From assembly GCA_020696385.1 (NCBI GenBank), contig JAEHCQ010000001.1, forward strand, positions 544,001-608,000: 64,000 nucleotides of DNA, written 5' to 3'. Shown here piece after piece: positions 18,375-57,048 of this stretch. Both the position numbers and the translations under genes were made by a program. How positions within the stretch are numbered: position 1 is the stretch's first letter; every line of letters begins with the position of its first letter. Below the pieces are notes generated by a model, which was not told where the DNA came from, searched no databases, and saw nothing but the letters and a program-made list of their open reading frames with translations. The stretch comes from Methanobacteriota archaeon (GTDB lineage: Archaea; Thermoplasmatota; Thermoplasmata; SG8-5; JAGLSY01).

Positions 18375-18471
18375 ATATTGTATTGCTTAGTATAACACTG
18401 GAATGATGATATGAATATAAACTTTTACCAATAATGTAAAAGCGAATTACTTGTTGATGATGTTTGAAACA

Positions 18472-19812
18472 TCATCCATTAATGATGTCCGCGACATCAT
18501 CAACAATCTCAGCCGCCCTTCCAGTGTAATTGGCCGCATCAAGTATAACATCCAGTTCTTCCGGTGTCCATAGATCGGATATGATCTCATCCTGCATCGC
18601 GCCGGTCCGAATATCATGCCCTTCATCAATGCATTTCATGGATATTCGTCTGGTCACCTCGTGTGCGTCCTGACGGCCTATTCCTTTCTTCACGAGAGCC
18701 ATCATGAGAGCTTCGGCCATGATCAAACCCTTGCTCATCTCGATATTCTTCTTCATGTTCTCGGGGAAGACCGCGAGGTTGGCAAAGACCTTGTTCATCT
18801 TCACCAGCATGTCATCCACCAGGACACAACTGTGACCTAATGTGAAACGCTCGGCCGATGAATTCGAGAGGTCTCGCTCATGCCAGAGCGGTGAATTCTC
18901 CAGAGTTGGGATTATGAAAGCGCGCTGAACCCTTGCCAATCCAGTAATGTTCTCGCACATGATCGGGTTCTTCTTGTGAGCCATTGTGGAACTGCCGACC
19001 TGTTTTTCCTTATCAAATGCCTCGGCAACCTCGCCTATCTCACTGCGCTGGAGATTCCTAATCTCCACCGAGAATTTTTCGAGAGATGCAGATATATTTG
19101 CTAATATCGCGATAAATTCCACATACCGATCCCTGCCCACTAATTGAAGACTGGCCTCTTCATATCCGAGCCCAAGTTCTTCCATTGTGATAATCTGCAA
19201 GTCCCTCGCATGTTCTCCAAGCGCGGCTCCAGTACCCACCGCGCCACTTAATTTCCCGACGCAGATCCTGGGCCTGGCTTCCTCCAAACGCTGGAGATGT
19301 CTGTGTGTCTCCAGGGCGTAGGCCGCGATCTTCATTCCAAAAGTAAGTGGTATGGCGAACTGGCCATGTGTTCTGCCGACCATGACCGTGTGCTTGTGTT
19401 CCTCTGCCAAATCGATCATCGTATGCTCCAATAGCATCAGGTCATCGATGATCATCTCGATAGCCTTATTGAACTGAAGCGCTGTAACCGTGTCCACGAT
19501 GTCATTGGATGTCGCGCCCAGATGGACATAGTCCCCGGCTGGCCCACATTGTTCCGTGAGTGCTTTGACCATGGCCATGATATCGTGGTTGGTATCCTTC
19601 TCGATCTCCCAAACACGCTCTAACTTCACTATCTGGCTATTGGCCTTTTGAGTGATAGTGTCCGCGTGCTCTTTGTCGATATTCCCCACCTTCGCGTGGG
19701 CCCTGGCAATAGCTGCCTCGACATCCAGCATGAGCTGCAGACGTACTTCTTCATCGAAAATCCTCTTCATCTCTTCTCGGCCATATCTGAATTCAAGCGG
19801 GCATACGGGCAT
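18472..19812 (-). CDS. purB: Adenylosuccinate lyase
   Basis: HLGATSND, GRTHGQ, GSSTMAHKKNP, WHERDL; start MPVCPLEFRYG. Confidence 0.96.
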   Translation of the reverse strand: MPVCPLEFRYGREEMKRIFDEEVRLQLMLDVEAAIARAHAKVGNIDKEHADTITQKANSQIVKLERVWEIEKDTNHDIMAMVKALTEQCGPAGDYVHLGATSNDIVDTVTALQFNKAIEMIIDDLMLLEHTMIDLAEEHKHTVMVGRTHGQFAIPLTFGMKIAAYALETHRHLQRLEEARPRICVGKLSGAVGTGAALGEHARDLQIITMEELGLGYEEASLQLVGRDRYVEFIAILANISASLEKFSVEIRNLQRSEIGEVAEAFDKEKQVGSSTMAHKKNPIMCENITGLARVQRAFIIPTLENSPLWHERDLSNSSAERFTLGHSCVLVDDMLVKMNKVFANLAVFPENMKKNIEMSKGLIMAEALMMALVKKGIGRQDAHEVTRRISMKCIDEGHDIRTGAMQDEIISDLWTPEELDVILDAANYTGRAAEIVDDVADIING

Positions 19813-19900
19813 ATTAACACCGAACCTGTATACCACCTATGAATTATATGTGGGTTTCGGTGGGTTGGAGAAGAAACCTGCTCATCATGTTTAGAATTAT

Positions 19901-20027
19901 AGAAAGATGGACCTCCCCGCCCTTTGGACGGGGTTTCGAATAGAGAACTGTCACTCGCTGGCACATCACTGAGAGTACCCCGCCCTCCTTGGTTCTATCG
20001 GCTCAATCAGACGGGGCATGCTTGCAT
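19901..20027 (-). ncRNA. IS200/IS605 right-end (TnpB reRNA/omegaRNA-like) scaffold, orphan copy 1
   Basis: Near-identical conserved blocks with 28539-28664; terminal GAAA-CCCCGTCC-AAA-GGGCGGGG-AGGTCCA hairpin; no tnpB ORF adjacent. Confidence 0.55.
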
Positions 20028-20045
20028 GATCATCGCTCTGCATAA

Positions 20046-21323
20046 TTATTGAATAAGCTCTTTCCCGCCCATATATTTGCGCAAGACCTCTGGAATTGTA
20101 ATTGTTCCATCCTCATTTTGGAAATTTTCCAAAATGGCCACCATAGTTCGGGAGGTGGCCAGTGCGGTATTGTTCAGCGTGTGGGGGATGGTCTTTTCCT
20201 TTCCGCCTACCTTGCCCATGCGGATCCCCAGTCGCCTGGCTTGATAGTCGGTGCAATTGGAGCAGGATGCGACCTCGCCATATTTGTCCTGGCGAGGGAA
20301 CCATGCTTCTATGTCATACTTTTTAGCTGCCAGGTTACCGATGTCCCCGGTGCAGACATTTACCACACGATATGGAATTCCAAGTAATTGGTACATTTCT
20401 TCTGTATTGGCCAGTAGTTCCTCATGATACTTCCAGGAATCCTCCGGTTTACAGAATATGAATTGCTCTATTTTGTTGAACTGGTGCATGCGGAACAGAC
20501 CTTTCGTATCCACGCCGTGGGCCCCGATCTCTTTTCTGAAGCAAGGGGAGAATCCGACCAGTTTCATGGGCATCTTTTCCTCATCCATTATCTCGCCCTG
20601 GAACATGGCGGCCATCGGGTGCTCGGAAGTGGCTATCAGATACAGGTCCTCGCCCTCTATCTTATACATCACATCCTCGAAGTCGCCCATATCCGTGACC
20701 CCTTCATACGGCTTGCGCTTGAGCATGAAAGGGGGCTCAACCAGTGTGTAGCCCTTACCGATCATGAACTCGGCCGCGAAATTTATGATGGCCAGATCCA
20801 GATAGGCCAGATCGCCCAAGAGGTAATTGAATCCCGCGCCGGAAACCCTACCGGCGCGGTCGAAGTCCGCGATGCCAAGATCTTCGGCCAATTCGGCGTG
20901 TGGTTTCAGATCGAAATCGAATTCCGGGGGCTGTCCCCACTTCCTCAGCTCCACATTCTTTTGATCATCCTCGCCCACTGGCACGCTTTCATGGAGAATG
21001 TTTGGCAAGATCATCTTCTTGCTATCGACTGAATCTTTCAGGTATCTGGTATCCTCATCCAACTTTTGAATTTCATCATTTATGTCCTTCATTTGATCAA
21101 GTTGTTTCGAGGCATCACCGCCAGCTTTCTTAATGCTGGCGATCTCCTTGGATATCGTATTGCGACGGGCTTTGAGCTCGTCGGCCTTGATATTCGATTC
21201 TCGCCATTTGGCATCATCCGCCAGAATGTCCTCGAGAACCTGCAATTTGTCCTCATCCTTTCGCTTGCGAAGGTCAGCCCTGATGATGTCTGGGTTATCT
21301 CTTATCAACTTGATATCCAACAT
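20046..21323 (-). CDS. serS: Serine--tRNA ligase
   Basis: MLDIKLIR, LIATSE, FRKEIG...GLFRMHQF, SCSNCTDYQARRL. Confidence 0.98.
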   Translation of the reverse strand: MLDIKLIRDNPDIIRADLRKRKDEDKLQVLEDILADDAKWRESNIKADELKARRNTISKEIASIKKAGGDASKQLDQMKDINDEIQKLDEDTRYLKDSVDSKKMILPNILHESVPVGEDDQKNVELRKWGQPPEFDFDLKPHAELAEDLGIADFDRAGRVSGAGFNYLLGDLAYLDLAIINFAAEFMIGKGYTLVEPPFMLKRKPYEGVTDMGDFEDVMYKIEGEDLYLIATSEHPMAAMFQGEIMDEEKMPMKLVGFSPCFRKEIGAHGVDTKGLFRMHQFNKIEQFIFCKPEDSWKYHEELLANTEEMYQLLGIPYRVVNVCTGDIGNLAAKKYDIEAWFPRQDKYGEVASCSNCTDYQARRLGIRMGKVGGKEKTIPHTLNNTALATSRTMVAILENFQNEDGTITIPEVLRKYMGGKELIQ

Positions 21324-21375
21324 TTGTCATTCTCCTCGATACATGATATCGAGAGAGAATGATAAGATATAAAAT

Positions 21376-24132
21376 TTACACCGTCTTGGCCTTTGCGGGC
21401 TTGGCAGGGGTCTTGTGCATCTTTCGGCGTATGACCTTTTCCAATTCCACTGCGAAGAACACGGAGCTGGATACCAGCACACACAGTCCCAATTCAAAGC
21501 CGTTCAATGCCGTTGTCCTGAAGACCTCGGCCAGTGGTGGCAAGTACACGACAGATAGCTGAAGAGCCGCACTGAAAGCAACTGCCCCTATGAGCCATGG
21601 ATTGACAAAGAACCTCTTCGATATCACGCTCTTCTCTTCCACATGCATGGCCATCACGTGCCACAATTGGAAGAAAGCGATAGTGATGAAAGCCATAGTT
21701 CTCGCATGATTATCAACGTACTCGGGAGTTCCCGTGGTCACACCATGCGCCCACTGGAATATTCCCAGTGTTCCGATGGTCATCAATGATCCGACCCAGA
21801 CGATGTGATAAGTGATCCCGCCGGCGAATATGGATTCCTTTGGATCCCTCGGCGGCCTCTTCATAATACCTTCCTCAGCCGGTTCAACACCAAGGCTGAG
21901 GGCGGGGAAACCGTCTGTTATGAGATTGATCCAGAGTATCTGAATCGCAATAAGTGGTAGCGGCATGCCGATCAAGGATGCGAGGAATATGACCAAGACC
22001 TCTCCTGAATTGGTGCTGAGCATGTACTTGACGAATTTACGAACATTATCGTAAATCGTACGTCCCTCGCCAATGGCCTCGACGATGGTGGCGAAATTAT
22101 CATCCGTGAGCACCATTTCAGAACTCTCCTTGGCTACATCTGTTCCGGTGATACCCATCGCGACACCAATATCCGCTGCTTTCAGAGCAGGTGCGTCATT
22201 GACACCATCACCTGTCATGGAAACTATATGGCCTTTGGCCTTCAGAGCTTTGACGATCCGCACTTTATGCTCGGGCGAAACTCTGGCATAAACATTCACA
22301 TCATCGACTATATTTTCGAGATCAGCATCAGACATGGCCTCGAGATCAAGGCCACGGAGGCTCTTGCCCCCCTCTGTGAAAATACCTAGTTCTGTAGCGA
22401 CAGCCTGGGCGGTCAATTGGTGATCGCCTGTTATCATCACCACCTTGATGCCAGCCTCTTTACATTTGGCCACAGCTTGCACCGCGTCAGATCTGGGGGC
22501 GTCCATCATGCCGATCATGCCCAGCAGGACGAAGGAGTGCTCCATTGACTCGTTCGCTTCTGGCTCCCCTTCTGGAATGTCTTTGTAAGCGATGGCCAAT
22601 ACTCGCAATCCCCTGGATGCCATCTCGTGATTCTGATCAACTATCCTGTCATATTCTTCTTTCGTGAATGGGACTGGCTGACCATCTTTCAGTATCTGAT
22701 CGCACTTATCGAACACGTACTCCGGCGCGCCTTTCATGTAAGCTATTATGTCATTGTCACGATTGTGGAAAGTGGTCATGCACTTTCTTTCTGAAGTGAA
22801 GTCCACCTCTCCCACTCTGGGTTCGAGCTCTTCGAGTTGCTCCTTATCAAGACCTGCTCGTTTGCCAGCTACTATAAGCGCCCCTTCCGTGGAATCACCA
22901 TGTATCACCCACAGATCGTCTTCTTTGATTATGGAGGAATCATTACAGAGTACCCCCGCCCTGAGCATGAGGTCCAGTTGGGAATGGTCCTCCAGTGATA
23001 TGTGCTGTGAATCATGCGTGAGCGTACCCTCTGGTTTGTAGCCATCACCCTTTATCTCGAATGTATTGGAATCTATGAAGACCTCTCTCACGTTCATCTT
23101 TCCTTCCGTCAGAGTCCCGGTCTTGTCACTGCATATGACGGTCACCGCTCCCAGTGTCTCCACTGATGGCAAACGGCGCACGAGAGCGTTCTTCTTAACC
23201 ATCTTCCTCATGCTGAGAGCTAATGAGATCGTGACAACGGCTGGCAATCCTTCAGGAACAGCCGCGACTGCCAAACTAACAGCGGTCAGGAATTCCTCCA
23301 CAACATGGGTCGGGTCCTTGATGTAGCTGACGAAAAAGACCACCGCGCATATACCGAGTATTGCCGCGCCTATGTTCTTGCCCAGCTTACCCAGTCTCTT
23401 CTGCAATGGAGTTTCTTCAGTCTCCTCGGCCTGGACCATACCAGCGATCTTTCCCAGCTCCGTGCTCATACCGGTCTCGATAACTATTCCCATACCGCGA
23501 CCGCGCTCGACAATGGTGCTTGTGAAGACCATGTTCTTTCGATCATTGATTATGACATTTCCACTCAGCGTGGAAATGTGCTTGCTGGTAGGTACTGATT
23601 CTCCGGTAAGTGAGGCCTCGTTCACCTGTAGATTTATAGCCTCTATCAAACGGCAATCGGCAGGCACTTTGGTACCCGCTGACAGGATCACTATGTCGCC
23701 CGGAACAAGATCCCTCGTGGGTATGACCTGGCTTTTCCCATTTCGGATGATGGTCGCTTGCGGAGCCGTCATCGCCTTCAGGGCGGCCATTGCTTTTTCG
23801 GCTTTGTACTCCTGAACAAAGCCGAAGACCGCATTGAACATCACTATGACCATGATGACCGCAGCATCGTACAACTCTTCATGTCCTTCTGTACTTTGCC
23901 AGCCTATAAATGCGGATATACCAGCAGCTATCAGAAGAATGATGACAAGAAAGTCTGTGAACTGTTGCAAAAATAGGCGAAGTGGAGATCTTTTCTTGGC
24001 TTCCGTGAGCTCATTTGGACCGTACTTTTCCAACCTTCCAGATACTTCGGTCTCGTTAAGACCATCCTTTGAAGAAGCAAGCTTATTGAATGTTTCTTCC
24101 ACCGATAGAGAGTGCCACTGACTGTCTGTCAT
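21376..24132 (-). CDS. Ca2+-transporting P-type ATPase (P2A-like)
   Basis: [42 protein letters not shown]. Confidence 0.93.
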
Positions 24133-24191
24133 ATATGCCTGTATCTAATTGTTATACATAAAGATGTAGATGGGAATACCCTATACCCGGA

Positions 24192-24229
24192 AGCCTTTTC
24201 TTTTATCCTCGCCCGACACTGCTCGCTCG
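24192..24229 (-). repeat. Internally deleted copy of the 33129-33278 element
   Basis: AGCCTTTTCTTTTATCCTCGC is identical to 33130-33150; 24208-24229 matches 33257-33278 at 17/22. Confidence 0.75.
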
Positions 24230-24340
24230 ATAAATTGAGAATGCTGGAGATGAAGCTGAGTAGGTCATGGCATAGCAAATTACTATTTTTCACCAAGCCA
24301 TAAGCTGAGGTATAGACTGCTTATGGATGATCAAGGCCAC

Positions 24341-24625
24341 CTACTCAGATTTTTCAGCTGCGTCTTCGGCTGGAGCCTCGCCTTCTGCTCCTTCCTCGCC
24401 CTCGGTCGCTGCTGCTGCATCCTCTGCCTTGGCTGCTGCTGCCTCTGCGTCGGCTGCCTTGGCTTCTGAAGCGGCTGCGGAGGCAGCGGCTGAATCGGCT
24501 TGGATCTTTGCCATTTCCACCTTGCTGACGTACTTGCCCGCGTCCTTGTTGCATCTCTTACACAACATCAATATGTTCAACAGCCTTTTTCGGCCACAAC
24601 CCTTACATGTCCTGAGTACTTTCAT
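24341..24625 (-). CDS. Small basic CxxC-x11-CxxC protein with Ala/Glu-rich tail, function unknown
   Basis: 94 aa, AGAGGA SD, co-oriented directly after the DUF655 gene. Confidence 0.75.
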   Translation of the reverse strand: MKVLRTCKGCGRKRLLNILMLCKRCNKDAGKYVSKVEMAKIQADSAAASAAASEAKAADAEAAAAKAEDAAAATEGEEGAEGEAPAEDAAEKSE

Positions 24626-24662
24626 ATTAATTCCTCTGTTATATTTTCAAATGTGATCTTTT

Positions 24663-25211
24663 CTATTTTGCCACAAAGATGTGGTATTTCTGCTCCGCCT
24701 CTGAAAGTTCCTGCTCGATCCGCTTGGCTATCAGCTTATCTGGATGATGCACGGATGAAACGCGCTCACCAAGTTCTTCGAAGGAGACGAAAGGCTTCTT
24801 TTTCCTTTCATCTATGATCGCCCACATGGATTTCTTACCCAATCCAGGGAGCAATTCCAGCATGTGGAAGCGTGTGGTGATAGCCCTGGCATCATTGTAG
24901 AATTTGACAAAGAAATCCTCTCTGTCCTTTACAATTTCCAGAAGCACAAATGGCAATTCACTATGGGATGCATTTGTAAGATCCTCATATCTTATCCTGC
25001 GCTTGACATGCAATATATCATGCCTCAGCTCAGCATTTTTGCCAATATACACTCTATCGCCTATTGTCAGGGGGGCATTGTCTTTGGGTGTGAGCTCGAA
25101 TAATTTGAACTCACTTTCGCCTACAGCATATGCTATTGGTTCACGACGGAAGCCTCTTTTATCAGCTCTCCCGTGTGGTAGATGATCCAATATAAATGCG
25201 TAGTCTTCCAC
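24663..25211 (-). CDS. DUF655 family RNA-binding protein
   Basis: (M)EDYAFILDHLPHG...R.H.LELLPGLGKK HhH; follows rpoF; GTG start. Confidence 0.92.
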   Translation of the reverse strand: MEDYAFILDHLPHGRADKRGFRREPIAYAVGESEFKLFELTPKDNAPLTIGDRVYIGKNAELRHDILHVKRRIRYEDLTNASHSELPFVLLEIVKDREDFFVKFYNDARAITTRFHMLELLPGLGKKSMWAIIDERKKKPFVSFEELGERVSSVHHPDKLIAKRIEQELSEAEQKYHIFVAK

Positions 25212-25221
25212 AATATCCCGC

Positions 25222-25542
25222 CTAATCACTCTTCCTTATCGTCTCCAATATCTGCTCGATCAGATTAGCATCTAGCGCGAACCTTTCTTTCGCAAAGATG
25301 GTCCTGACCTCATCGGGATATCTAGGCATTATATCTGCCAACTTACAAGCGTGAAGCTCTGACAAAGGTTCTATCTTCTGGAGCTCTTCTACCAATTTTC
25401 TGGAAGCCTTGGCATCAAGTTTGGCGAATTTCAGGGCGTGAGCCAGTGCATAGTTCTGCTCCGTGTTAAGCTCACGATTTTCCTGTTCTTTCTCGAGCAA
25501 CTCCTTTACCTCTGCTAAAGTCAAACACTGTGTTTCAGAAAT
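25222..25542 (-). CDS. rpoF: DNA-directed RNA polymerase subunit F (Rpo4)
   Basis: LTLAEVKELL...EQ..AL.HA.KF...KLADIMP...EVRTIF; start either TTG 25524 or SD-positioned ATT 25542. Confidence 0.93.
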   Translation of the reverse strand: MSETQCLTLAEVKELLEKEQENRELNTEQNYALAHALKFAKLDAKASRKLVEELQKIEPLSELHACKLADIMPRYPDEVRTIFAKERFALDANLIEQILETIRKSD

Positions 25543-25546
25543 AATA

Positions 25547-25840
25547 TCACCCCTGCTTTTTCAGGTGCTCTGGAGCGACAATAAGCTGCTTTTCCTTGTT
25601 ACCGTGCTTCAAAGTCACGACGAAAGCATTGCCCTGCTTGCCAGTTATGATTCCGCATAAGCCTTGGAACCTGACATGCGGCATTCCACCATGAACACTT
25701 GGCTCAATAACTATATTGACCCTCTCGCCATTTTCAAAATTAGCGAATGTTTTGGTCAGTGGCGGCATGCCCTTCTGTCTCACGGATTTCCGCAAGATCA
25801 TTCTTGATCTACTTCTTATTCCTCTGGACCTTTTCACCAT
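25547..25840 (-). CDS. rpl21e: 50S ribosomal protein L21e
   Basis: MVKRSRG.RSRSR...GMPH.RFQG..G...PEHLK. Confidence 0.96.
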   Translation of the reverse strand: MVKRSRGIRSRSRMILRKSVRQKGMPPLTKTFANFENGERVNIVIEPSVHGGMPHVRFQGLCGIITGKQGNAFVVTLKHGNKEKQLIVAPEHLKKQG

Positions 25841-25841
25841 T

Positions 25842-27113
25842 TTAATCAGCCCCTGGATCATGACTGTCTAATATTTCCAGTACATCCAGTTCTTCTACTT
25901 TGATCTCCACACCCAACTCACCGGCGATGCTTGGGATGGTTCGGCCATCATCCCCGTGGACCAGTTCCTTGATATAGGTACCAGCTTCCGCGGTAATGGC
26001 AAATGCCACCCGATCTCCAGACAGTTCAAGAATGGAAATTGTTTTTACTTTCCTTTTCCTGATCTTATCTGCCCTTCGATGCTTCACTCTAGTGGGGGTC
26101 TTTTGATCGATCGTTTTCTCACCAAGAGATGCAACTACTTCTTTAAGCTTTTCCTCGGAGAAGTCACCTTGAATTATGCCTGATATCACATATTGTTTAT
26201 CTGACCTGGCACTCTTGATACGAACCACCTCGTCATTATTGGATGGTCGCATTTCTGTAGCCGAGGCTCCCAGATCAGAGTTTTCCAGAGCTTCCATTAT
26301 CTTATCCAATGGGAGGTCCCTTTTCTTCGGCTCCTTGATCTCGACCACAAATGGTCTACCCCTTCCTTTCATGAGGGCATCGATATCTTCCCTGCCCATA
26401 CCGTGGAATCTATGATCCTTTCCTCCGGAATACTTCATGACCTCCTGGGCGATGATCTCCTCCACACTGGTCTGATAAAGTTTGCCAGTATTGTTACATT
26501 TCTCGCAGCCTTTGCCCATGCAATGTCGACATGGCCATCTGGTCTGCGGAATCCCCCTCGTGTATTTTGTATATCTGCCATAAAGATACAATGACGCGAT
26601 CTGAAGACTAACGGACTCATACATCGTGTCTATGACGGTGACAATATGTGGCTTATTGAACTCCGGTTCCTTACCAGTTTTGGCATACACCAGCTTGCCA
26701 ACTTCCCTATTGAACTCGGCTTTTATAGGTTCGCCGAACTCCCCGGATACCTCCGACCATAACAGTTCCTCCTTCTCCACCAATTCGGCATCGAACTTGG
26801 ACCCGATCAGGAAGGTGTCATACTCCCATTCATTCATCTTTTCGATCGCCATGGAAGCAAATCTTGGATAATCATCGGTTATGCCTTCGCAGAGCCAGCA
26901 ATTTTCTGGCTCCGTGGGGTCGGGCACATCCTTCATTTTCTTTATTTCCTGTCCCCTTGCCAGATTGGACAGGCCTTCTTCAGCTCCATCCTGCCCGAGC
27001 TTGGCAAATGCCCTACCCAGGCATGTGAAACACACCCTGTTATCCTTCAGAAAATCAAAATCGATCTGATCCAATAAAGGTTCTATTCCGTCGTGAAAAG
27101 TCTTCAAAGTCAT
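25842..27113 (-). CDS. pus10: tRNA pseudouridine(54/55) synthase Pus10
   Basis: GRYTKYTRGIPQTRW, GREDIDA, QKTPTRV.HRRAD, GTYIKELVHGDDGRT.PS. Confidence 0.96.
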   Translation of the reverse strand: MTLKTFHDGIEPLLDQIDFDFLKDNRVCFTCLGRAFAKLGQDGAEEGLSNLARGQEIKKMKDVPDPTEPENCWLCEGITDDYPRFASMAIEKMNEWEYDTFLIGSKFDAELVEKEELLWSEVSGEFGEPIKAEFNREVGKLVYAKTGKEPEFNKPHIVTVIDTMYESVSLQIASLYLYGRYTKYTRGIPQTRWPCRHCMGKGCEKCNNTGKLYQTSVEEIIAQEVMKYSGGKDHRFHGMGREDIDALMKGRGRPFVVEIKEPKKRDLPLDKIMEALENSDLGASATEMRPSNNDEVVRIKSARSDKQYVISGIIQGDFSEEKLKEVVASLGEKTIDQKTPTRVKHRRADKIRKRKVKTISILELSGDRVAFAITAEAGTYIKELVHGDDGRTIPSIAGELGVEIKVEELDVLEILDSHDPGAD

Positions 27114-27168
27114 TGGAAGCACCAGCCTATTAAATTATGTTATATATTATTCTAATCCATTGATCCGA

Positions 27169-27444
27169 TCATTCCTTCCTTAAATAGATCTCGATGGACG
27201 ATACATTCGACTTCCTGCCATCTTCATTCTCCAGACTTTCGGTGTATATCTTGATATCATCCACCACGGCCGTTGTTATTACCTTGTTCCTTGTTATCTC
27301 GGCCACATCGACCGCCTTGCTTATGCTTCTACCCCTGGCCTTGATGGTCACCTTGCCAGCATCCCCATTGAGCTGGCCTGTCACTGCCAGAACATAGCTC
27401 ATTGTTTCTTTTTTGCCGATATATATTATATTGTCATCTGCCAT
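27169..27444 (-). CDS. albA: DNA/RNA-binding protein Alba
   Basis: IYIGKKE.MSYVLAV...KARGRSISKAVDVAE...NVSSIEI. Confidence 0.96.
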   Translation of the reverse strand: MADDNIIYIGKKETMSYVLAVTGQLNGDAGKVTIKARGRSISKAVDVAEITRNKVITTAVVDDIKIYTESLENEDGRKSNVSSIEIYLRKE

Positions 27445-27711
27445 CAATTCAGCTCCTGGGTTGATCATATACTTATTATAAGATTAACAATAAGTGATGA
27501 TATAAAAAGATATAGTTGGACAAATCTTGAGAGAGAGTGTGGAAGTGATGATGTTAAATTTAATTATTATTCAATATTATTAACGATAGTAATTGATTTA
27601 TTGTCAAAATGACCAGCCAGAATTATCCATATTGACACTTTTGACATATTCAATAACCGATAGGCTTTTATCATTATAGTGAACTATGGGAATCGAATTG
27701 GAGGAAGCTCA

Positions 27712-28407
27712 ATGAAGATCAAAAGAGTTAAGACCTTTATAAAGGGACTGGACAAGGAAATGAGTGGAGGCGTTCCAGAGGGTAGTGTTATACTTATAGC
27801 GGGAAAGCCTGGAACAATGAAATCTTCACTGGCTTTTAATATTCTGTATCACAATGCGAATATTGAAGATGTCAGTGGTGTCTATGTCACTTTGGAGCAG
27901 AGTAGAGAAAGCCTTTTGACCAATATGGACGGCCTGGGAATGAAGCTGGGCGGTCTGGAAAAAGAGATCAGTGTCCTTGATTTGGGAATGATAAGGAAGA
28001 AGCTCACCCAGCTCACCAATCAGACCTGGATGGAAGTCTTCAAGATGTACATCCAGAACCTGAAAAAGAACATGGACATCAAGGTCGTGGTAATTGATTC
28101 ATTACCAGTTCTGGAAGTCATGGCCAGGTTCCAGCATCCGAGAGAAGAATTATTCCATTTCTTCGAATGGCTGAGGGACATGGATGTCACAGCCTTCCTG
28201 ATAACCGAGATGCAGCAGGGATCGGACCAGTTCTGCAAGTACGATGAGGATTTCCTGTCGGATGGTATCATGCACCTTGACCTGAAAAGGGAAGGGAACC
28301 AAGTTAACTTATTCCTTGGTATTGTGAAGATGAGGCAGACCAGCCACAAGAGAGGGTATTCACCACTGATATTCGACAAGGATGGATTCGAGATAGTTTC
28401 GGATTAG
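27712..28407 (+). CDS. KaiC/RAD55-like RecA-superfamily ATPase (single domain)
   Basis: GLD..MSGG.PEGS, GKPGTMKS Walker A, VIDS, KMRQT.H; ATG after GGAGG. Confidence 0.9.
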   Translation: MKIKRVKTFIKGLDKEMSGGVPEGSVILIAGKPGTMKSSLAFNILYHNANIEDVSGVYVTLEQSRESLLTNMDGLGMKLGGLEKEISVLDLGMIRKKLTQLTNQTWMEVFKMYIQNLKKNMDIKVVVIDSLPVLEVMARFQHPREELFHFFEWLRDMDVTAFLITEMQQGSDQFCKYDEDFLSDGIMHLDLKREGNQVNLFLGIVKMRQTSHKRGYSPLIFDKDGFEIVSD

Positions 28408-28538
28408 TTCGAGCAGTATGTCATATAAATTGTTCAATATTCAGCGTAAGCCAGTATGAGCTCCGAGCAGGGGGACGGGTGCGAACCAGCGCAGGAGTGC
28501 AGGGTGGGGGAGTATCAATTGAATGGGGTGGGTGTTTC

Positions 28539-28664
28539 AGAAAGATTGACCTCCCCGCCCTTTGAACGGGGTTTCGAATAGGGGCTGTCACTCACTGAGA
28601 TATAGAATATAGTACCCCGCCCTCCTTTGGCCAATTGGGTCAATCAGACGTGGCATGCTTGCAT
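28539..28664 (-). ncRNA. IS200/IS605 right-end (TnpB reRNA/omegaRNA-like) scaffold, orphan copy 2
   Basis: Minus strand ends GAAA-CCCCGTTC-AAA-GGGCGGGG-AGG-TCAA; upstream TGAC can pair with terminal GTCA; paralogous to 19901-20027. Confidence 0.6.
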
Positions 28665-28726
28665 TAATCCGCATACACATTGATGAGAATATGCCATGCA
28701 GGCATACGATGTGCGGGCATATGCCT

Positions 28727-29920
28727 TCAATTCTTGGCCATGAGGAAGAACACTATGGCCGGGAAGACCAGCAGACCACCGATGACCATCATATTGCCCG
28801 GACCCATGGAATCCGTAAATAGTGAAATTACCACATCTCCAATAAGCAAGCCGATCGCGAAAACCATGTTCTTAAAGGATCCCATTGTCGCTCTGATCTC
28901 CGTTGGGAGGATATTCTGGAAATAAGGCTCGAATATCGGGCCAAAGGTCGACCATCGTATACTAAGAATTATGAGCACCAATGCGGCCAGCCAGGCCATG
29001 TCTACGAAGAAGATAATGACCATGACGAGGCCGAAAATAAGAGTGTGTACTGCGAGATACACACTCTTTTTCTTCGCTCTTTGGCCAATGGCCTTGGCAA
29101 GGAAGGGGATCCCGACACAGATCGCCGCGCCTATCGCGGTTATGTATCCGAAGAACTCGCGAGGAATGCCCATGACCTCCATGTAAGGCTGCCTGAGGAT
29201 CATGATGAACTCCCCACTCAGTGCGATGAATATCATGGCCAACAGTATGTAGAACACCTGCTTGTCACTGATAGAGAATCTCGCCCCCTCTCTGATATTC
29301 TGGCCAGTTTGTTTCATCGTTCCCCTGAGGTTCATTTTCGTGGGTACATGATGCTCCTTCTGCATTGCCAGAATGGGAAGGGTGGCAAGCATGGATATCC
29401 CACTGATATACCACACCATGTCCATACTCCAGTATTTCACTACAAGACCGGCCATTATGGATGCGAATATGAAACCCAGCATATTTATGGACTGGTCCTT
29501 GGCAAAGAAGTCATCTATCAGATCTTCTCTGTCAACTGCCTTGAAATTGTCCACCACCCAGGCCTCGACAGCCCCGGATATGAGAGTGACTGGCAACCCC
29601 CAGGCTGTGAATACGATTATCAGCAATATTGGGTCAGTGATGCTCGGGATGATCAGGAGAACGGATGCGAATCCAATGTAGCCAAGAATGGTCGATGCCT
29701 TGCGACCGAAAGCATCGGCCAATGCCCCAGTGGGAACTTCCAGCAGGGTCATTGAAAGCCCATTGAGACCCAGGGCGATGCCAATCACGGCAAAAGAAAA
29801 ACCCTGGTCCATGAGAAAGACTACCCAGTAGATCCAGATAAGGGCAAAACTGGATTCCAATATACTGTGAAGATAGAAAAGCTTGGTATGCTGTAATTCC
29901 CCGTCCTTGAATAGTCTCAT
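28727..29920 (-). CDS. MFS transporter
   Basis: About 12 hydrophobic segments; EVPTGALADAFGRK motif A; EIRAT.GS. Confidence 0.92.
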   Translation of the reverse strand: MRLFKDGELQHTKLFYLHSILESSFALIWIYWVVFLMDQGFSFAVIGIALGLNGLSMTLLEVPTGALADAFGRKASTILGYIGFASVLLIIPSITDPILLIIVFTAWGLPVTLISGAVEAWVVDNFKAVDREDLIDDFFAKDQSINMLGFIFASIMAGLVVKYWSMDMVWYISGISMLATLPILAMQKEHHVPTKMNLRGTMKQTGQNIREGARFSISDKQVFYILLAMIFIALSGEFIMILRQPYMEVMGIPREFFGYITAIGAAICVGIPFLAKAIGQRAKKKSVYLAVHTLIFGLVMVIIFFVDMAWLAALVLIILSIRWSTFGPIFEPYFQNILPTEIRATMGSFKNMVFAIGLLIGDVVISLFTDSMGPGNMMVIGGLLVFPAIVFFLMAKN

Positions 29921-30039
29921 TGTTCAGGTTCTAATATCGCCCACGATATAAGGGTTACCAAGGTATGCATGATCGTAGGAAAGATAACATAAATCATATA
30001 TGCTCGAAAGGCGGTCATCAATGATATAGGAGGGAAAGA

Positions 30040-34676: not shown

Positions 34677-34884
34677 ATTATCCTCAGTTGAAGGCGGATA
34701 ATTGGTCGTGCTTATAAGTTTAACCCCCACTTTTTCCTTTTAAGATTATCTATGCTGGATGTCCAATTATAACCCTATAAATTTCTAAAATTTTTCATCC
34801 TGAACTAAGGCGGAAACTACATAACCTCTCAACCCAATCCCTGCCGTTCATCGCCATCCAGAGCTATGAAATAGGTAGCAAACA

Positions 34885-50000: not shown

Positions 50001-51475
50001 TTGAGAATATCAGTCTATCTCCATCCAATGTCACTGGTATGTCCGGTGACTGGGTGTGGTTGAATGCCACGATGGATGAGGAAACAACCGGTTGGTCGAA
50101 CATAACCGGGGCAGAATGGTATGTGAGCTATGAATACCCAACAATAGAGAATGGAACTGGCAATCCATGTAATGCTTCAGATGGTTCCTTTGACAGTACT
50201 CAAGAAAACATTACTGCTTTATTAGAGATACCAAGCTTCCCGAAGGGAACGAGTACCATTTGGATACATGGTTCTGATGAAGGAGGGAATTGGTGCGAAT
50301 GGGAAAGCATCAATCTGACGATCTTTGATGACTGGGGACCCGTTGTTGTATCTGGACCGACCTTCGAGCCAGATCCTTTTTCATCCTCCATGGATGAGAT
50401 CACAATATCCATAACATTTGATGATGAAGAAAGAGGTAAGTCTGTTATCACGGGAATTGATTGGAGATTCGTTGGTGAATGGCCAGCTGGCGTTAATCAG
50501 ACAGGATGGTCATCCATTAGTTCTTTGGATTGGGCATTTGACGAATGGAAGGAAGCTGTAAATCTCTGGTTCAATACATCATTATGGGAAAGAGGGGATT
50601 ATATCCTTGAGATCAGAGGAATTGATGATTATGGCAATCGTGGTGAGTGGGCCAATATAACTATAGAAGTTCTGGATGATGAATCTCCAGAATCTCCGAT
50701 CGGACTGATGGTCACCAATGAAGCAAATGGAGCCCTGAACCTAACATGGAACTCAAGCTCCGAGGGAGATCTTGTGGGATACAATGTGTATCGATCAGAA
50801 AGTAGTGGTAGAAGATATGTTCTCATAGCATCCATTCTAGCCTCTTCAGATCCGTTCTTCACAGACGCTGGGATTGTCCTGGGTACGACCTATTACTACG
50901 TGGTAACTGCCTTTGATGATCAGAGCCCGCCAAATGAATCACCCTTCTCGGAAGAGGGGACAGGAACATCGACAGTGGTATTGATATCCACCACGGATAC
51001 AGATGGGGACGGTATCGATGACAATGTGGATACCGATGACGATAATGATGGCATTCCGGACAGTGAAGACGCAATGCCGCTGGATACTGATAATGATGGC
51101 GTGAATAATAATGTGGATACCGATGATGATAATGATGGTATTCCGGACAGTGAAGATACCATGCCGCTGGATACTGATAATGATGGGGAGAATAATGATG
51201 TGGATACCGATGATGATGGAGATGGTATTCCGGACAGTGAAGACACACACCCACTCACTCCAGCCGCTCTTCCCGAGGAAGAGGATGAATCCCCCGGAAC
51301 TTCTGGTTATATCTGGCTAGTACTGGTTGGTATTTTCCTCGTGGTCTTATTCGCCCTTTATTTCAAAACAAGAGGAAAAGGTAAGTTACCAGATGATGGT
51401 GAGCGAACCGAGACACCACAGGAAGAAAATGCAACCGAGGAATTGGAAGCAGAAAATGGAGAAAAAGAAGAGTGA
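47048..51475 (+). CDS. Large surface protein: parallel beta-helix (NosD-like) repeats, Ig/FN3 domains, thrombospondin-3-like repeats, C-terminal TM anchor
   Basis: G...DPYIIENLEI start, N..I.NN repeats, NNTVNG/NNTVDG motifs, FN3, acidic repeats, TM helix. Confidence 0.88.
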   Translation: MMNRKILSAFVVFALLANILTLLPINGAYAVELVNDTDAFILPDRPMAPSPPIWISADFTTDPSVKNPLANGTEADPYIIENLEIDGSGSGYCIFIENTNKFFIIRNCTLENSNDAGLLMLGSSNGIIENCTIINNQGSGIKAESEFVDIEVYNSTISDNEWGGVIINADKMTNSTFVNNIINSNLDKGGIGIRGMPEIAVIRTEIHDNELSNNDGLCPIRLGSKLNPAQDDLPVHSIYTNITNNDIINPGGNFNGIIMIYATEYIQANIMDNDFNTPQTQNGVHIGKMSNEYSKNPGVRNLDVNFINNNLTNIAAGALILCSTESLYANVSDNYIYHTTGITCGAVTIGWFKAGVDTSTPKNATVILKNNILEKVADTIGFGIKAIYDLNVTIEDNTVDSVNAPGIRVGWLGDGDASNAPEPWAYPTRNVHGSISNNTITGGRGQGIWLYSLNNSIVNGNQVSGRDGTSTNGDGIRIDGARGNNIVSNNVITEAEAIGIRLYNSKDVVVKDNTLNSNQYGLGVDYYSNNNQFFSNTILKNDVQYGYFIEINSLNNSYPANNTVNGEWLRYFYGLEGADGALVPVQNHIIDERLLSNLGQVIVANSSYVEIKDNDVNNGSYGLALINTHDSVAFDNDCESNIGGGLVIREEGKDNSIFQNILTNNGYGIGLSGITSGNIFWNNLITKGITQTGMYIDNSGYSWENTIYENNTVDGESVRYYHGESGHTITGEQILVSYITNLGQISYVNSTDIQFNDVDIQNGNAGVYIINGDRVDVFDSILENNRYGFFASLTNDIQLANIDITSSITNVFLSNTENINIEECHLEGGDRSIYLYKSDPFIANSTIENAVSNSTSLNGDSHPVLLNTTFDKSQVYVSDPLSNLSVRWYLDIHVSSNGKNISEAKILIIDNDGANVFENMTQETGWIDQLIMTEYIVAMENNTDIKAPYNVTVQKDGLGSFNASIDMGQSTILLIELDDETLPLIENISLSPSNVTGMSGDWVWLNATMDEETTGWSNITGAEWYVSYEYPTIENGTGNPCNASDGSFDSTQENITALLEIPSFPKGTSTIWIHGSDEGGNWCEWESINLTIFDDWGPVVVSGPTFEPDPFSSSMDEITISITFDDEERGKSVITGIDWRFVGEWPAGVNQTGWSSISSLDWAFDEWKEAVNLWFNTSLWERGDYILEIRGIDDYGNRGEWANITIEVLDDESPESPIGLMVTNEANGALNLTWNSSSEGDLVGYNVYRSESSGRRYVLIASILASSDPFFTDAGIVLGTTYYYVVTAFDDQSPPNESPFSEEGTGTSTVVLISTTDTDGDGIDDNVDTDDDNDGIPDSEDAMPLDTDNDGVNNNVDTDDDNDGIPDSEDTMPLDTDNDGENNDVDTDDDGDGIPDSEDTHPLTPAALPEEEDESPGTSGYIWLVLVGIFLVVLFALYFKTRGKGKLPDDGERTETPQEENATEELEAENGEKEE
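50996..51256 (+). repeat. Three tandem 87-bp coding repeats (29-aa Ca-binding thrombospondin-3-like unit)
   Basis: Units start at 50996, 51083 and 51170: DTDxDGxxxxVDTDDDxDGIPDSEDxxPL. Confidence 0.9.
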
Positions 51476-56842: not shown

Positions 56843-56873
56843 TCTGATGTATCGTGTCTGAATAAAGCAAAAT

Positions 56874-56910
56874 GGGGAAGGCGAACCAGCCTTCCCCCCT
56901 TTTATATTTT
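56874..56910 (+). terminator. Hairpin plus T-tract after the 1689-aa gene
   Basis: GGGGAAGGC-GAACCA-GCCTTCCCC followed by a T-rich run. Confidence 0.6.
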
Positions 56911-57048
56911 ATTATTTTTCTTTTGTTAGCCAGCCTTATTATTTCATTGTCTATTGTTAAGGATATTAATATATAATAACATTAAACTTATGCGACTTTA
57001 ACTATATGAATAAGTCTAACATATAATATAAATTTGAGAGGAGTGAAA

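Follow-up and report, generated by a model that had tools for sequence, protein, structure and literature searches.

Two intergenic repeats of a Thermoplasmata archaeon look like members of a mosaic hairpin repeat family rather than stand-alone TnpB guide RNAs

Two repeats in a 64,000-nucleotide stretch of archaeal DNA (the window) had been predicted to be orphan TnpB guide-RNA scaffolds or, as a fallback, remnants of non-autonomous insertion sequences (IS). Our results lie close to the fallback and give no support to stand-alone omegaRNAs or reRNAs. The two copies resemble mobile passenger DNA of the type represented by IS200/IS605 or REP, and they probably belong to a lineage-specific, non-autonomous, mosaic family of hairpin repeats that resembles both the palindrome-associated transposable elements (PATEs) and the REP/BIME elements. 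The family is multi-copy and modular, and occurs in two taxonomic families of one Thermoplasmata order. Its copies lie in intergenic DNA 3′ of genes with a sense bias, and differ in presence and absence between sister species. They are accompanied neither by target duplications nor by tnpB.

Copy number and modular build of the repeat family

The original prediction had described a repeat at 19901-20027 and 28539-28664, in sense orientation just after the stop codons of serS and an MFS gene. This was confirmed: the two segments are 83% identical over 127 nt, both read on the minus strand, and the gene identities were assigned by Pfam. Repeat detection in the window had reported it as family D10, at 79% over 80 nt, and family D15, at 95% over 43 nt. 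The element is longer than the 126–127 bp first given (nhmmer envelopes in Table 1): a conserved 5′ extension of ~45 nt (ATATTCTCAACAATGTATATGCGGATCAAT-like) extends up to the stop codons, and a conserved tail, TCTTTCTrAAAyCCTAAACAC, lies 3′ of the terminal hairpin. Copy 1 is flanked by the serS stop and the promoter region of an adenylosuccinate lyase gene (Pfam), and its orthologue in the sister genome G002 is 90% identical.

Nor is the repeat confined to two copies. An iterated profile search of the 2.28-Mb genome (G000) found ~45, with 48 nhmmer matches at E ≤ 1e-3. A type-A regular expression fits 15 copies and a type-B expression 19, counted after 4 and 1 rows, respectively, had been discarded by eye as mis-hits, and a core is common to both types. 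The build is that of a mosaic, in which this conserved core, consisting of the hairpin GCCCCGYC/GGGCGGGG and GAGTGACAG, is joined to alternative 3′ modules. Each element contains 2–3 copies of one GC-rich hairpin, connected by a conserved linker (UAC...GAGUGACAG) and interchangeable 3′ modules. The same sequence, CCCCGYC/GGGCGGGG, recurs in hairpin 1 and in the terminal hairpin, both in the same orientation, and the GTGAC columns are invariant in alignments A2 and A3. The hairpins are of a subterminal type, and the family elements have no terminal inverted repeats and no coding capacity.

Table 1. Positions of the two repeat copies, their parts, neighbouring genes and sites that differ from the sister genome G002 (window coordinates; R1, covariance model of the common core)
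Feature	Positions	Strand	Basis or remark
Copy 1, whole element, type A short form	19883..20062	-	nhmmer envelope C11:563883-564062, 164 bits; R1 90.4 bits; built of 5′ extension, hairpin 1, linker with GAGTGACAG, hairpin 3 and tail
Copy 1 hairpin 1, UGCCCCGUCU / AGGGCGGGGUA, 23-nt GAUUGA...GGA loop	19976..20018	-	RNAfold; consensus helix in alignments A2 and A4
Copy 1 conserved linker ending in GAGTGACAG	19948..19975	-	GTGACAG at 19948-19954; invariant GTGAC columns in A2 and A3
Copy 1 terminal hairpin, CCCCGUCC AAA GGGCGGGG	19915..19933	-	RNAfold; 99% of cells paired in A2
Copy 1 tail, AGGTCCATCTTTCTATAATTCTAAAC...	19883..19914	-	Conserved in type-A copies; cleavage site and 'guide' of the original prediction
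Seryl-tRNA synthetase gene (serS), upstream of copy 1	20046-21323	-	Pfam; stop 20046-20048
Copy 2, whole element, type A short form	28528..28684	-	nhmmer envelope C11:572528-572684, 137.7 bits; R1 81.1 bits
Copy 2 hairpin 1, with A-G mismatch (GCCACG)	28614..28655	-	Not predicted by RNAfold for copy 2
Copy 2 terminal hairpin, CCCCGUUC AAA GGGCGGGG	28553..28571	-	
MFS transporter gene, directly upstream of copy 2	28727-29920	-	Pfam; stop 28727-29
KaiC-like gene converging on copy 2	27679-28407	+	Pfam
Stretch of 1,388 bp with MFS gene and copy 2, missing at the orthologous place in G002	28541..29929	-	Flanks 15 nt apart in G002
Site without a copy in G000 (82 nt), holding a family copy in G002 (242 nt between the same flanks)	34726..34808	.	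L138 vs C11:578726-578808

Both GC-rich hairpins of the original prediction are present, and both are retained across the family as consensus helices of the alignments. What is conserved is the sequence of the hairpin and not its pairing alone. Over 58 distinct sequences, 98.7% of cells are paired, with compensatory change in just 2 of the 9 hairpin pairs. A G-U pair is invariant at one position and is the commonest type at two more, and because of these G-U pairs the opposite strand folds worse, making the hairpin strand-specific. The first stem, given as 10 bp, carries an A-G mismatch in copy 2 and is not predicted there by RNAfold. The RNAfold energies of the two window copies are unremarkable compared to shuffled sequences (z = −0.95 and −0.78, sense strand).

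The hairpin loops vary from 11 to ~100 nt, some with nested mini-insertions, and in four family copies the loops hold a nested double-hairpin mini-element. The GATTGA...GGA loop that had been called K-turn-like is indeed present in the window copies, but it is just one of several interchangeable hairpin 1 loops (11 of 28 sequences in A3). K-turns have a 3-nt bulge before their G-A pairs; judged by eye, the loop and linker do not fit this rule, and neither a K-turn nor a C/D-box reading is general across the loops. The 'alternative 5′ flanks' of some copies have no conserved gene upstream, and proved to be a ~90-nt expansion of the hairpin 1 loop. A promoter reading of the linker (TATATTC ~25 nt before GTGACA) was dropped, again by eye, as its place is taken by CTCTCAG in one copy out of three, among them copy 1. 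Rfam searches at permissive thresholds with the window stretch, type-B copies and copies from the taxonomic family f4 returned chance-level matches to isrG, Lambda_thermo and C/D-box fragments, together with a weak HgcC match; a hammerhead, twister or other ribozyme was rejected, there being no Rfam match to any.

Placement, turnover and distribution

Placement was analysed for the 44 nhmmer matches in G000 that scored ≥40. By greedy ORF calls all 44 are intergenic, four of them being overlapped by short, doubtful ORFs. Twenty lie between converging genes, five between diverging genes and two at contig ends, while those between tandem genes are oriented sense in 14 cases and antisense in 3. 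The genes upstream are unrelated housekeeping genes. Target duplications are absent: of 40 flank pairs, one had at least 10 nt in common, a degree of sharing also seen in 4.4% of the mismatched pairs used as controls, and no duplication of a gene end or promoter was seen in the 40 pairs.

Sister species differ in their copies. At least 6 of the 27 G002 copies that were compared have no counterpart at the orthologous G000 site. When five G002-only copies were aligned to G000, unrelated filler of 20–80 nt stood in place of the element each time, so that neither a sharp boundary nor a target motif could be drawn; likewise, a target motif 5′ of the left end is undefinable because the element ends are not sharply bounded. 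Since the filler at the six 'empty' G000 sites is short and unrelated, and in one case includes a remnant of the 5′ extension, these sites may be losses and not gains. Inspection of the six revealed no precise empty site, and no cleavage site or transposition intermediate was found. Two further differences involve a gene. The stretch holding the MFS gene and copy 2 is missing from G002 (Table 1), and its loss there is the simpler reading, because a contig of a third genome, G001, begins inside the orthologue of copy 2. The other, a repeat together with a 252-aa gene (~1.19 kb), occurs in G002 but not in G000. At two sites common to both genomes (L146 and L149), the copies carry different 3′ modules.

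Orthologous copies are 78.7% conserved, compared with 80.8% for other intergenic DNA and 85.9% for coding DNA. The core consensus is nevertheless kept across two taxonomic families, and a core maintained while orthologous copies drift like intergenic DNA is the pattern of a proliferating element.

The core model R1 matches 17 of the 22 genomes of the order, with a maximum of 38 matches per genome. By taxonomic family, it matches all four genomes of f1 plus G000 and 12 of 13 in f4, but neither of the two genomes in f2 nor the two in f3. At the class level, 14 of 151 genomes were matched, all in f1 or f4, and there was no match in other Thermoplasmata among the genomes searched outside f1 and f4. 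The exact core pattern occurs at 69 loci of the species collection, 56 of them in archaeal MAGs whose records carry the label Thermoplasmata, Methanomassiliicoccales or Methanobacteriota; the remaining 13 are single matches in unrelated bacteria.

Alternative readings of the repeat

In the original prediction, the repeats were orphan omegaRNA or reRNA scaffolds that stem from an IS200/IS605 right end; once transcribed, they would be taken up in trans by a TnpB, or by a TnpB-like repressor with a dead nuclease, and their 3′ flank would be the guide. Published work already discusses PATEs whose omegaRNAs depend on a TnpB supplied in trans (PMC10055086), and describes HgcC as having a right-end-like hairpin (PMC4615843). 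Our repeat has some likeness to HgcC (RF00062) and to the sotRNAs at the 3′ end of IS1341-type tnpB, in that a terminal GC hairpin is followed by a GAGG(N)UCA...CUUU tail. A weak HgcC alignment to copy 1 spans its terminal hairpin and its tail, with 15.2 bits and an E of 0.13 for 171 nt, and three of the four weak HgcC matches in the genome fall on family copies. However, the best score in G000 is 17.6 bits, so that the whole range of 15–18 bits is far under the gathering score of 50, and the 5′ two thirds of the family do not align. No copy overlaps a tnpB gene. A TnpB elsewhere in the genome could not be found either: PF07282 and PF01385 have no match in the 94.5%-complete G000. Across the order, the 17 genomes that carry the repeat have no PF07282 match above the cut-off, and the one sub-threshold match examined turned out to be a CAAX protease bearing a zinc ribbon of the TFIIB type. 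All eight tnpB-bearing genomes are without the repeat, five tnpB 3′ tails from the same class gave 0 nhmmer matches to the family, and the order's sole tnpB fragment is unlike the family at its 3′ end. No homologue of the repeat lies beside a tnpB, and its association with tnpA is solely through the likeness of a hairpin (see below). The supposed variable guides begin with the conserved tail, as the ~20 nt that follow TCAA/TCCA are kept among type-A copies. Target searches with the two 19-mer flanks found, in the genome, only themselves and the tails of other copies (near matches), and in viral contigs 0 and 1 exact match, the one being without an adjacent repeat and at chance level by a rough estimate. 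The proposed TGAC:GTCA pseudoknot, with 87.5% of cells paired in 14 type-A copies, has 0 compensatory changes and one pair broken in 5 of the 14, including copy 1 (GTCC); by eye, several type-B copies have GGCAA instead of GTCAA. The guide-RNA scaffold reading is close to refuted, and the repeat as a TnpB finding does not stand.

The placement of the copies would also suit a structured RNA that serves the host, be it a cis-acting 3′-UTR element (a terminator, stabiliser or site for an RNA-binding protein) or a set of small RNA genes, selected at the RNA level and spread only secondarily. The sense bias between tandem genes, the enrichment between converging genes and the strand-specific G-U pairs all agree with such a role. 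So do the 3′ modules of f4, which end in a second hairpin and a T run, and a stem that is CAGAG/CUCUG in one genus and CAGAAC/GUUCUG in another. Published REPs, according to PMC3733652, are likewise mainly downstream of genes and believed to act as RNA. A look-up of sequencing runs for positions 18400-21400 of the window returned none, RNA or other. Selection at the RNA level is, however, hard to match with orthologous copies that diverge like other intergenic DNA, with the gain or loss of copies in sister species and with stems kept in sequence rather than by compensatory change; the folding-energy z-scores are weak, and Rfam gave no match. We regard this as a rather doubtful primary explanation, although an RNA role could be secondary to, and is compatible with, a mobile repeat. 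Far less probable is that the repeats are recombination sites which bound small gene cassettes, similar to attC, so that genes travel with the adjoining repeat. This would account for the two differences in which gene and repeat are present or absent together, but the repeat is 3′ of the gene in one case and 5′ in the other, five further differences concern the repeat alone, and the copies are dispersed singly, with no arrays.

A Y1 transposase and likeness to known repeat systems

There is one Y1 transposase gene (PF01797) in G000, at C50:2010-2357 on the minus strand and with a 143-aa product. PF01797 is present in 16 of the 22 genomes of the order, and the transposase is apparently inherited vertically. 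NCBIfam names the G000 gene an IS200-type transposase (119.5 bits on transpos_IS200), while it fails the NCBI RAYT model REP_Tyr_transpos (28.2 bits, cut-off 80). In 10 of the 16 tnpA loci the gene has a variant hairpin, A[AG]GCCTCGYC...GRCGGGGTA, no more than 1.4 kb away; the same expression has 0 matches in 206 other loci (582 kb) and 1 in the whole of G000. The other six tnpA loci have no such hairpin inside their 1.5-kb flanks. R1 found 10 matches at E ≤ 1 in the 16 tnpA loci, whereas among 20 control loci of like size it matched one only, which holds a true family copy.

The hairpin at the tnpA locus is unique and nearly identical to that of the family, and is followed by GTGAC. It differs from the family hairpin in having AAGCCTCG in place of CATGCCCCG, and GTGAC is ~55–60 nt away from it, compared to 20 nt in the family. 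Its position and orientation relative to tnpA vary, and in G002 and G013, and nowhere else seen, two hairpins stand head-to-head beside the gene. In f2 and f3, tnpA and the hairpin are present and the dispersed family is absent. No pair of ends flanking tnpA was found, nor a full-length parent IS with the ends of the family. The likeness of this one hairpin is a lead that may connect the transposase with the family.

Two known systems come close. PATEs are gene-less fusions of IS200/IS605 left and right ends in haloarchaea and Geobacillus (PMC4615843 and PMC10055086). The family elements are similarly gene-less, 130–200 nt long, multi-copy and intergenic, with two like hairpins on one strand, without inverted terminal repeats or target duplication, and with a Y1 transposase encoded elsewhere in the genome. 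Unlike PATEs, they have no full-length parent IS, the sole tnpA locus has one related hairpin at a variable position, and the elements are mosaics with alternative 3′ modules. As there is no tnpB in the clade, the right-end part of the family cannot serve TnpB. The second system is that of the bacterial REP/BIME and REPIN elements with their single-copy RAYT transposases (PMC3733652, PMC3116915 and PMC5581495). As in these, imperfect GC-rich palindromes occur in tens of copies, form mosaics and lie mainly downstream of genes, and a single-copy Y1 transposase is linked to a related hairpin. The differences are that our host is archaeal and its transposase IS200-type, not RAYT; that the hairpins of one element point the same way, whereas those of REPINs are inverted; that the unpaired GTAG tag of REPs is lacking, and CGTC lies inside the stem; that the units are longer, with a conserved non-palindromic linker; and that the hairpin linked to tnpA is a variant and not a family copy, unlike the repeats that flank RAYT genes.

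Under the mobile-repeat explanation, the single-copy IS200-type Y1 transposase of the order would recognise the hairpin, and the copies would spread, or would once have spread, in the form of single-stranded DNA. They may survive mostly behind genes because they are harmless there, where they would be co-transcribed as 3′ UTR hairpins and might stabilise or end the upstream transcript. A more tentative extension is an archaeal counterpart of REPIN-RAYT: a single-copy, vertically inherited IS200-type Y1 transposase, kept across the order with its own hairpin, may have seeded the mosaic family behind stop codons in two taxonomic families and may still maintain it.

The repeat family is apparently undescribed, having no Rfam match and nothing in a literature search. 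Within a clade of uncultured sediment archaea, genomes have tens of copies each; these cause assemblies to break at contig ends, and mark places where sister species have gained or lost genes. To our knowledge, partnerships of transposase and repeat in archaea have been described only as haloarchaeal PATEs; the family makes it possible to test, in archaea, whether a conserved single-copy Y1 transposase is linked to a hairpin repeat that depends on it. If the REPIN-RAYT-like reading is true, domestication of a Y1 transposase with dependent repeats would have arisen independently in archaea, from the IS200 clade and not the RAYT clade.

The repeat and its family

The two stretches noticed in the window are true repeats of one another, with 83% identity across 127 nt by BLAST. 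A repeat search within the window paired 19901-19943 with 28539-28581 (43 nt, 95% identity) and 19948-20027 with 28585-28664 (80 nt, 79% identity). The motifs quoted in the original prediction are those of the minus strand, and its description of both copies as lying in sense orientation just after a stop codon was correct. The length it gave, 126-127 nt, was too short, as the nhmmer envelopes extend further on both sides. In the window's own genome (G000, assembled as 2.28 Mb in 50 contigs, 94.5% complete), copy 1 had 39 BLAST matches at E ≤ 10. Three nhmmer rounds gave 48 matches at E ≤ 1e-3, a single copy sometimes being matched as two halves, and 44 of the 48 scored at least 40 bits. The two window copies are members of a large family.

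Locations of the repeats and associated features (window coordinates unless a contig or extracted locus, L, is named)
Feature	Location	Strand	Remarks
Copy 1	19901-20027	minus	3' of the seryl-tRNA synthetase stop codon, 5' of the adenylosuccinate lyase gene
Copy 1, nhmmer envelope	19883-20062		
Copy 2	28539-28664	minus	3' of the MFS transporter gene, convergent with a KaiC-like gene
Copy 2, nhmmer envelope	28528-28684		
G000 site lacking the counterpart of a G002 copy	34726-34808		
Shared site, 3' modules differing	G000:C44:245394-245585		compared with L146
Shared site, 3' modules differing	G000:C48:3045-3279		compared with L149
Copy with nested mini-element	G000:C11:224434-224676		
Copy with nested mini-element	G000:C47:89639-89875		
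Copy with nested mini-element	G000:C48:3045-3279		
Copy with nested mini-element	G000:C11:77782-77998		
Asp-rich coding repeats	50995-51255		87-nt units
Coding repeats	55400-63900		261-nt and roughly 7.1-kb-spaced

Side-by-side comparison gave four parts common to the copies: a 5' extension of ~45 nt, a hairpin (hairpin 1, GCCCCGYC-loop-GGGCGGGG), a linker (UAC(U)...GAGUGACAG) and a 3' module. The spacing from GGGGTAC to GTGACA is exactly 20 nt in most copies. There are at least two alternative 3' modules in G000, one per copy. Type A, which takes in both window copies, runs from an optional CAGAG-UG-CUCUG small stem through UUCGAAR and a second copy of hairpin 1 to the tail AGGUCAAUCUUUCUrAAAyCCUAAACAC. 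Type B opens with GCGAUGUGCCAGUAGGAAGAUAAA and a hairpin unlike hairpin 1, whose arms covary by eye (CUCCUCGC/GCGAGGAG, CCACUCGC/GCGAGUGG, CACCUCGC/GCGAGGUG), and continues with UCAAAUCAA, a third hairpin (CCCCGCC/GGGGCGGGG) and the tail UCCUUAUCCACACCCAGCAUAACAAA. After exclusion of mis-hits judged by eye (four rows for type A, one for type B), regular expressions fitted 15 copies to type A and 19 to type B. The hairpin 1 loop spans 11 nt to ~100 nt, and in four copies it holds a nested double-hairpin mini-insert; the loops are therefore insertion targets of a second small repeat. This mini-element is ~55-70 nt long, its two hairpins being TTATTTGCG...CGCAAATAA and TAGTTCGAG...TTCGAACTA.

Across 58 distinct core sequences, 98.7% of hairpin 1 cells were paired. 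The hairpin is almost fixed in sequence, with compensatory change at only 2 of 9 pairs, which suggests recognition of sequence and not of shape alone. One pair is G-U throughout, and at two more G-U is more frequent than any other type, so that the hairpin folds much better on the sense strand than on the complement. This strand bias would fit either an RNA or the 'top' ssDNA strand read by an HUH transposase. Placement of the 44 copies, taken from greedy ORF calls, was also asymmetric: 20 lay between converging genes and 5 between diverging genes, tandem-gene intervals held 14 sense and 3 antisense copies, and 2 were at contig ends. The upstream gene was on the same strand in 35 of 44, typically within ~50 nt. 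The family thus avoids promoters and favours sense orientation behind genes. One copy (G000:C22:133583-133761) has GGAGCCAGGTGG on both flanks, within G-rich stretches (GGTGGGGGCGGAGCCAGGTGGG), and two other copies on that contig are preceded by similar stretches.

Of 22 genomes of the order, 17 matched a covariance model of the repeat core (R1), built from 28 sequences, with as many as 38 matches in a single genome. The family was found in 4/4 relatives from the window's own family and 12/13 genomes of a second family (f4), and in 0/4 from the other two families. Among 151 sampled genomes of the class 14 were positive, all from the same two families. The second family has the same core, yet other 3' modules, ending in a hairpin and a T run. 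With one genome per prokaryotic species, the exact core pattern occurred at 69 loci, 56 of them in archaeal MAG records carrying the label Thermoplasmata, Methanomassiliicoccales or Methanobacteriota; the remaining 13 were single matches in unrelated bacteria and were taken as chance. A limited literature search found nothing on such repeats in Thermoplasmata. The window also contains many diverged coding repeats between 43300 and 63900, probably domains of giant surface proteins.

Evidence on the TnpB guide-RNA reading

The original prediction read the copies as TnpB guide-RNA scaffolds standing apart from any tnpB gene, and staked this on homologs being associated with tnpB/tnpA. Neither PF07282 (the TnpB zinc-ribbon domain) nor PF01385 (OrfB_IS605) had a match in G000, while control genomes were positive. 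PF07282 was above cut-off in 8 of 41 relatives, none of them in the two repeat-bearing families. The sole match in the order was a 108-aa fragment in G009, a genome without the repeat, and the CCCCGYC hairpin was not found at the 3' end of that fragment. The one sub-threshold match checked, in a repeat-bearing genome, proved to be a CAAX protease carrying a TFIIB-type zinc ribbon. The family profile matched none of five tnpB 3' tails taken from the class. Judged by the prediction's own criterion, the tnpB reading does not hold.

The supposed K-turn-like GAUUGA...GGA loop is one version among several, present in 11 of the 28 sequences of the alignment; in K-turns a 3-nt bulge precedes the G-A pairs, a rule that this loop does not fit. 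The proposed TGAC:GTCA pseudoknot was paired in 87.5% of cells among 14 type-A copies from five genomes with no compensatory change, and 5 of the 14, including copy 1 (GUCC), were broken at one pair. By eye, several type-B copies have GGCAA where the pairing would require GUCAA. The 3' flanks put forward as guides open with the conserved family tail; near matches of TCTTTCTATAATTCTAAAC elsewhere in G000 were tails of other copies, and the two 19-mers had 0 and 1 exact matches in viral contigs, the single match without an adjoining repeat. Folding energies of the two window copies were not unusual on the sense strand (z = -0.95 and -0.78; antisense, +1.27 and -1.46), and RNAfold omitted hairpin 1 of copy 2 because of an A-G mismatch.

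Rfam HgcC, suggested for comparison, reached 15.2 bits where its gathering score is 50, aligning to the terminal hairpin and tail only. The best score in G000 was 17.6 bits and three of the four weak matches there were family copies, which makes the resemblance genuine, if slight. No other Rfam family matched the type A, type B or f4 forms. A weak isrG match at window 24409-24492 (23 bits, gathering score 100), within GC-rich DNA of the GCTGCT type, was taken as chance.

Turnover between sister genomes

Copy 1 has an ortholog in the sister genome G002 (90% identity). Copy 2 and its MFS gene (1,388 bp, window 28541-29929) are absent from G002, where the flanks lie 15 nt apart. Loss in G002 would be the simpler story, because copy 2 is present in a third genome, G001, which is less similar to G000 (85% in a neighbouring gene, against 90% for G002). 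A second difference of gene plus repeat is a 252-aa gene with an adjoining family copy, present in G002 (L135:406-1598). Among 27 G002 copies with flanks that could be located in G000, at least 6 had no counterpart, ~14 were shared and the rest were ambiguous. At two shared sites the 3' module differs between the two genomes (type B against type A), which suggests module exchange or replacement in place. 'Empty' G000 sites are filled with short unrelated DNA, so element ends and a target motif could not be defined. Target duplications were not found: at least 10 nt were shared in 1 of 40 flank pairs, compared with 4.4% of mismatched pairs.

Orthologous copies were 78.7% identical, other intergenic DNA 80.8% and coding DNA 85.9%; individual copies thus drift like neutral DNA. 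The core consensus is nevertheless retained across two families. This combination marks a proliferating element, with selection on its master copies for being recognised, and is not what an RNA needed by the host at each locus would leave.

A candidate transposase and related systems

G000 has one Y1 (HUH) transposase gene, assigned by NCBIfam to the IS200/IS605 type (119.5 bits). Of the order's 22 genomes, 16 have such a gene (7/7 high-quality ones), mostly once per genome, and it is also present in the two families without the repeat. Searching the 16 transposase loci (51 kb in total) with R1 gave 10 weak matches (13-28 bits, E 5e-5 to 0.34); among 20 control loci adding up to the same length only one matched, the holder of a true family copy. 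The matches form a distinct orthologous unit, hairpin ACAAGCCTCGTCTGTGAGGGCGGGGTAT, an AT-rich stretch and CGTGACTTGG, where the dispersed family has ACATGCCCCGTCTGTAAGGGCGGGGTAC...GAGTGACA. A regular expression for this variant hairpin found it in 10/16 transposase loci and 0/206 other loci (582 kb), and just once in the whole G000 genome, at a point 909 nt 3' of tnpA. Its position varies: where it shares the strand of tnpA it is 6-909 nt downstream, and where it is on the opposite strand, 84-1333 nt upstream; G002 and G013, another genome of the order, have two head to head. Within the extracted flanks, six of the 16 loci had no variant hairpin, and no intact IS ends were found. The variant hairpin may be the transposase's own recognition hairpin, with the dispersed repeats as its dependants.

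The unit is unique and within 1.4 kb of tnpA in 10/16 genomes, with 40-60 conserved nt after CGTGACTTGG; it could represent either a transposon end or a small RNA. Directly downstream of tnpA, GTGATGATGG and a CCGCATT/AATGCGG hairpin are conserved in three genomes of the genus. The G000 gene (G000:C50:1000-2400, locus L031; also L120-L133) adjoins long tRNA genes with partial duplicates.

The family has features of both PATEs and REPs. PATEs are described as gene-less fusions of IS200/IS605 ends, and in Halobacterium one of them gives rise to an intergenic RNA (PMC4615843). According to a preprint they often encode omegaRNAs requiring TnpB in trans (PMC10055086), so the original prediction, even if correct, would not be a new idea. 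REPs are presented as GC-rich palindromes, mostly 3' of genes, that are believed to function as RNA and to owe their movement to single-copy RAYTs (PMC3733652; see also PMC3116915, PMC5581495). Unlike REPs, the family has no inverted-dimer build, and its candidate transposase fails the RAYT model (28.2 bits against a cut-off of 80); in contrast to PATEs, no full-length parent IS was found for it. We file it as a variant of the hairpin-repeat kind, a member of neither group. Of the original prediction, the repeat observation stands in part and the guide-RNA reading is not supported. Its fallback is the best-supported reading: with moderate confidence, judging from sequence comparison, the family would be a non-autonomous IS remnant.
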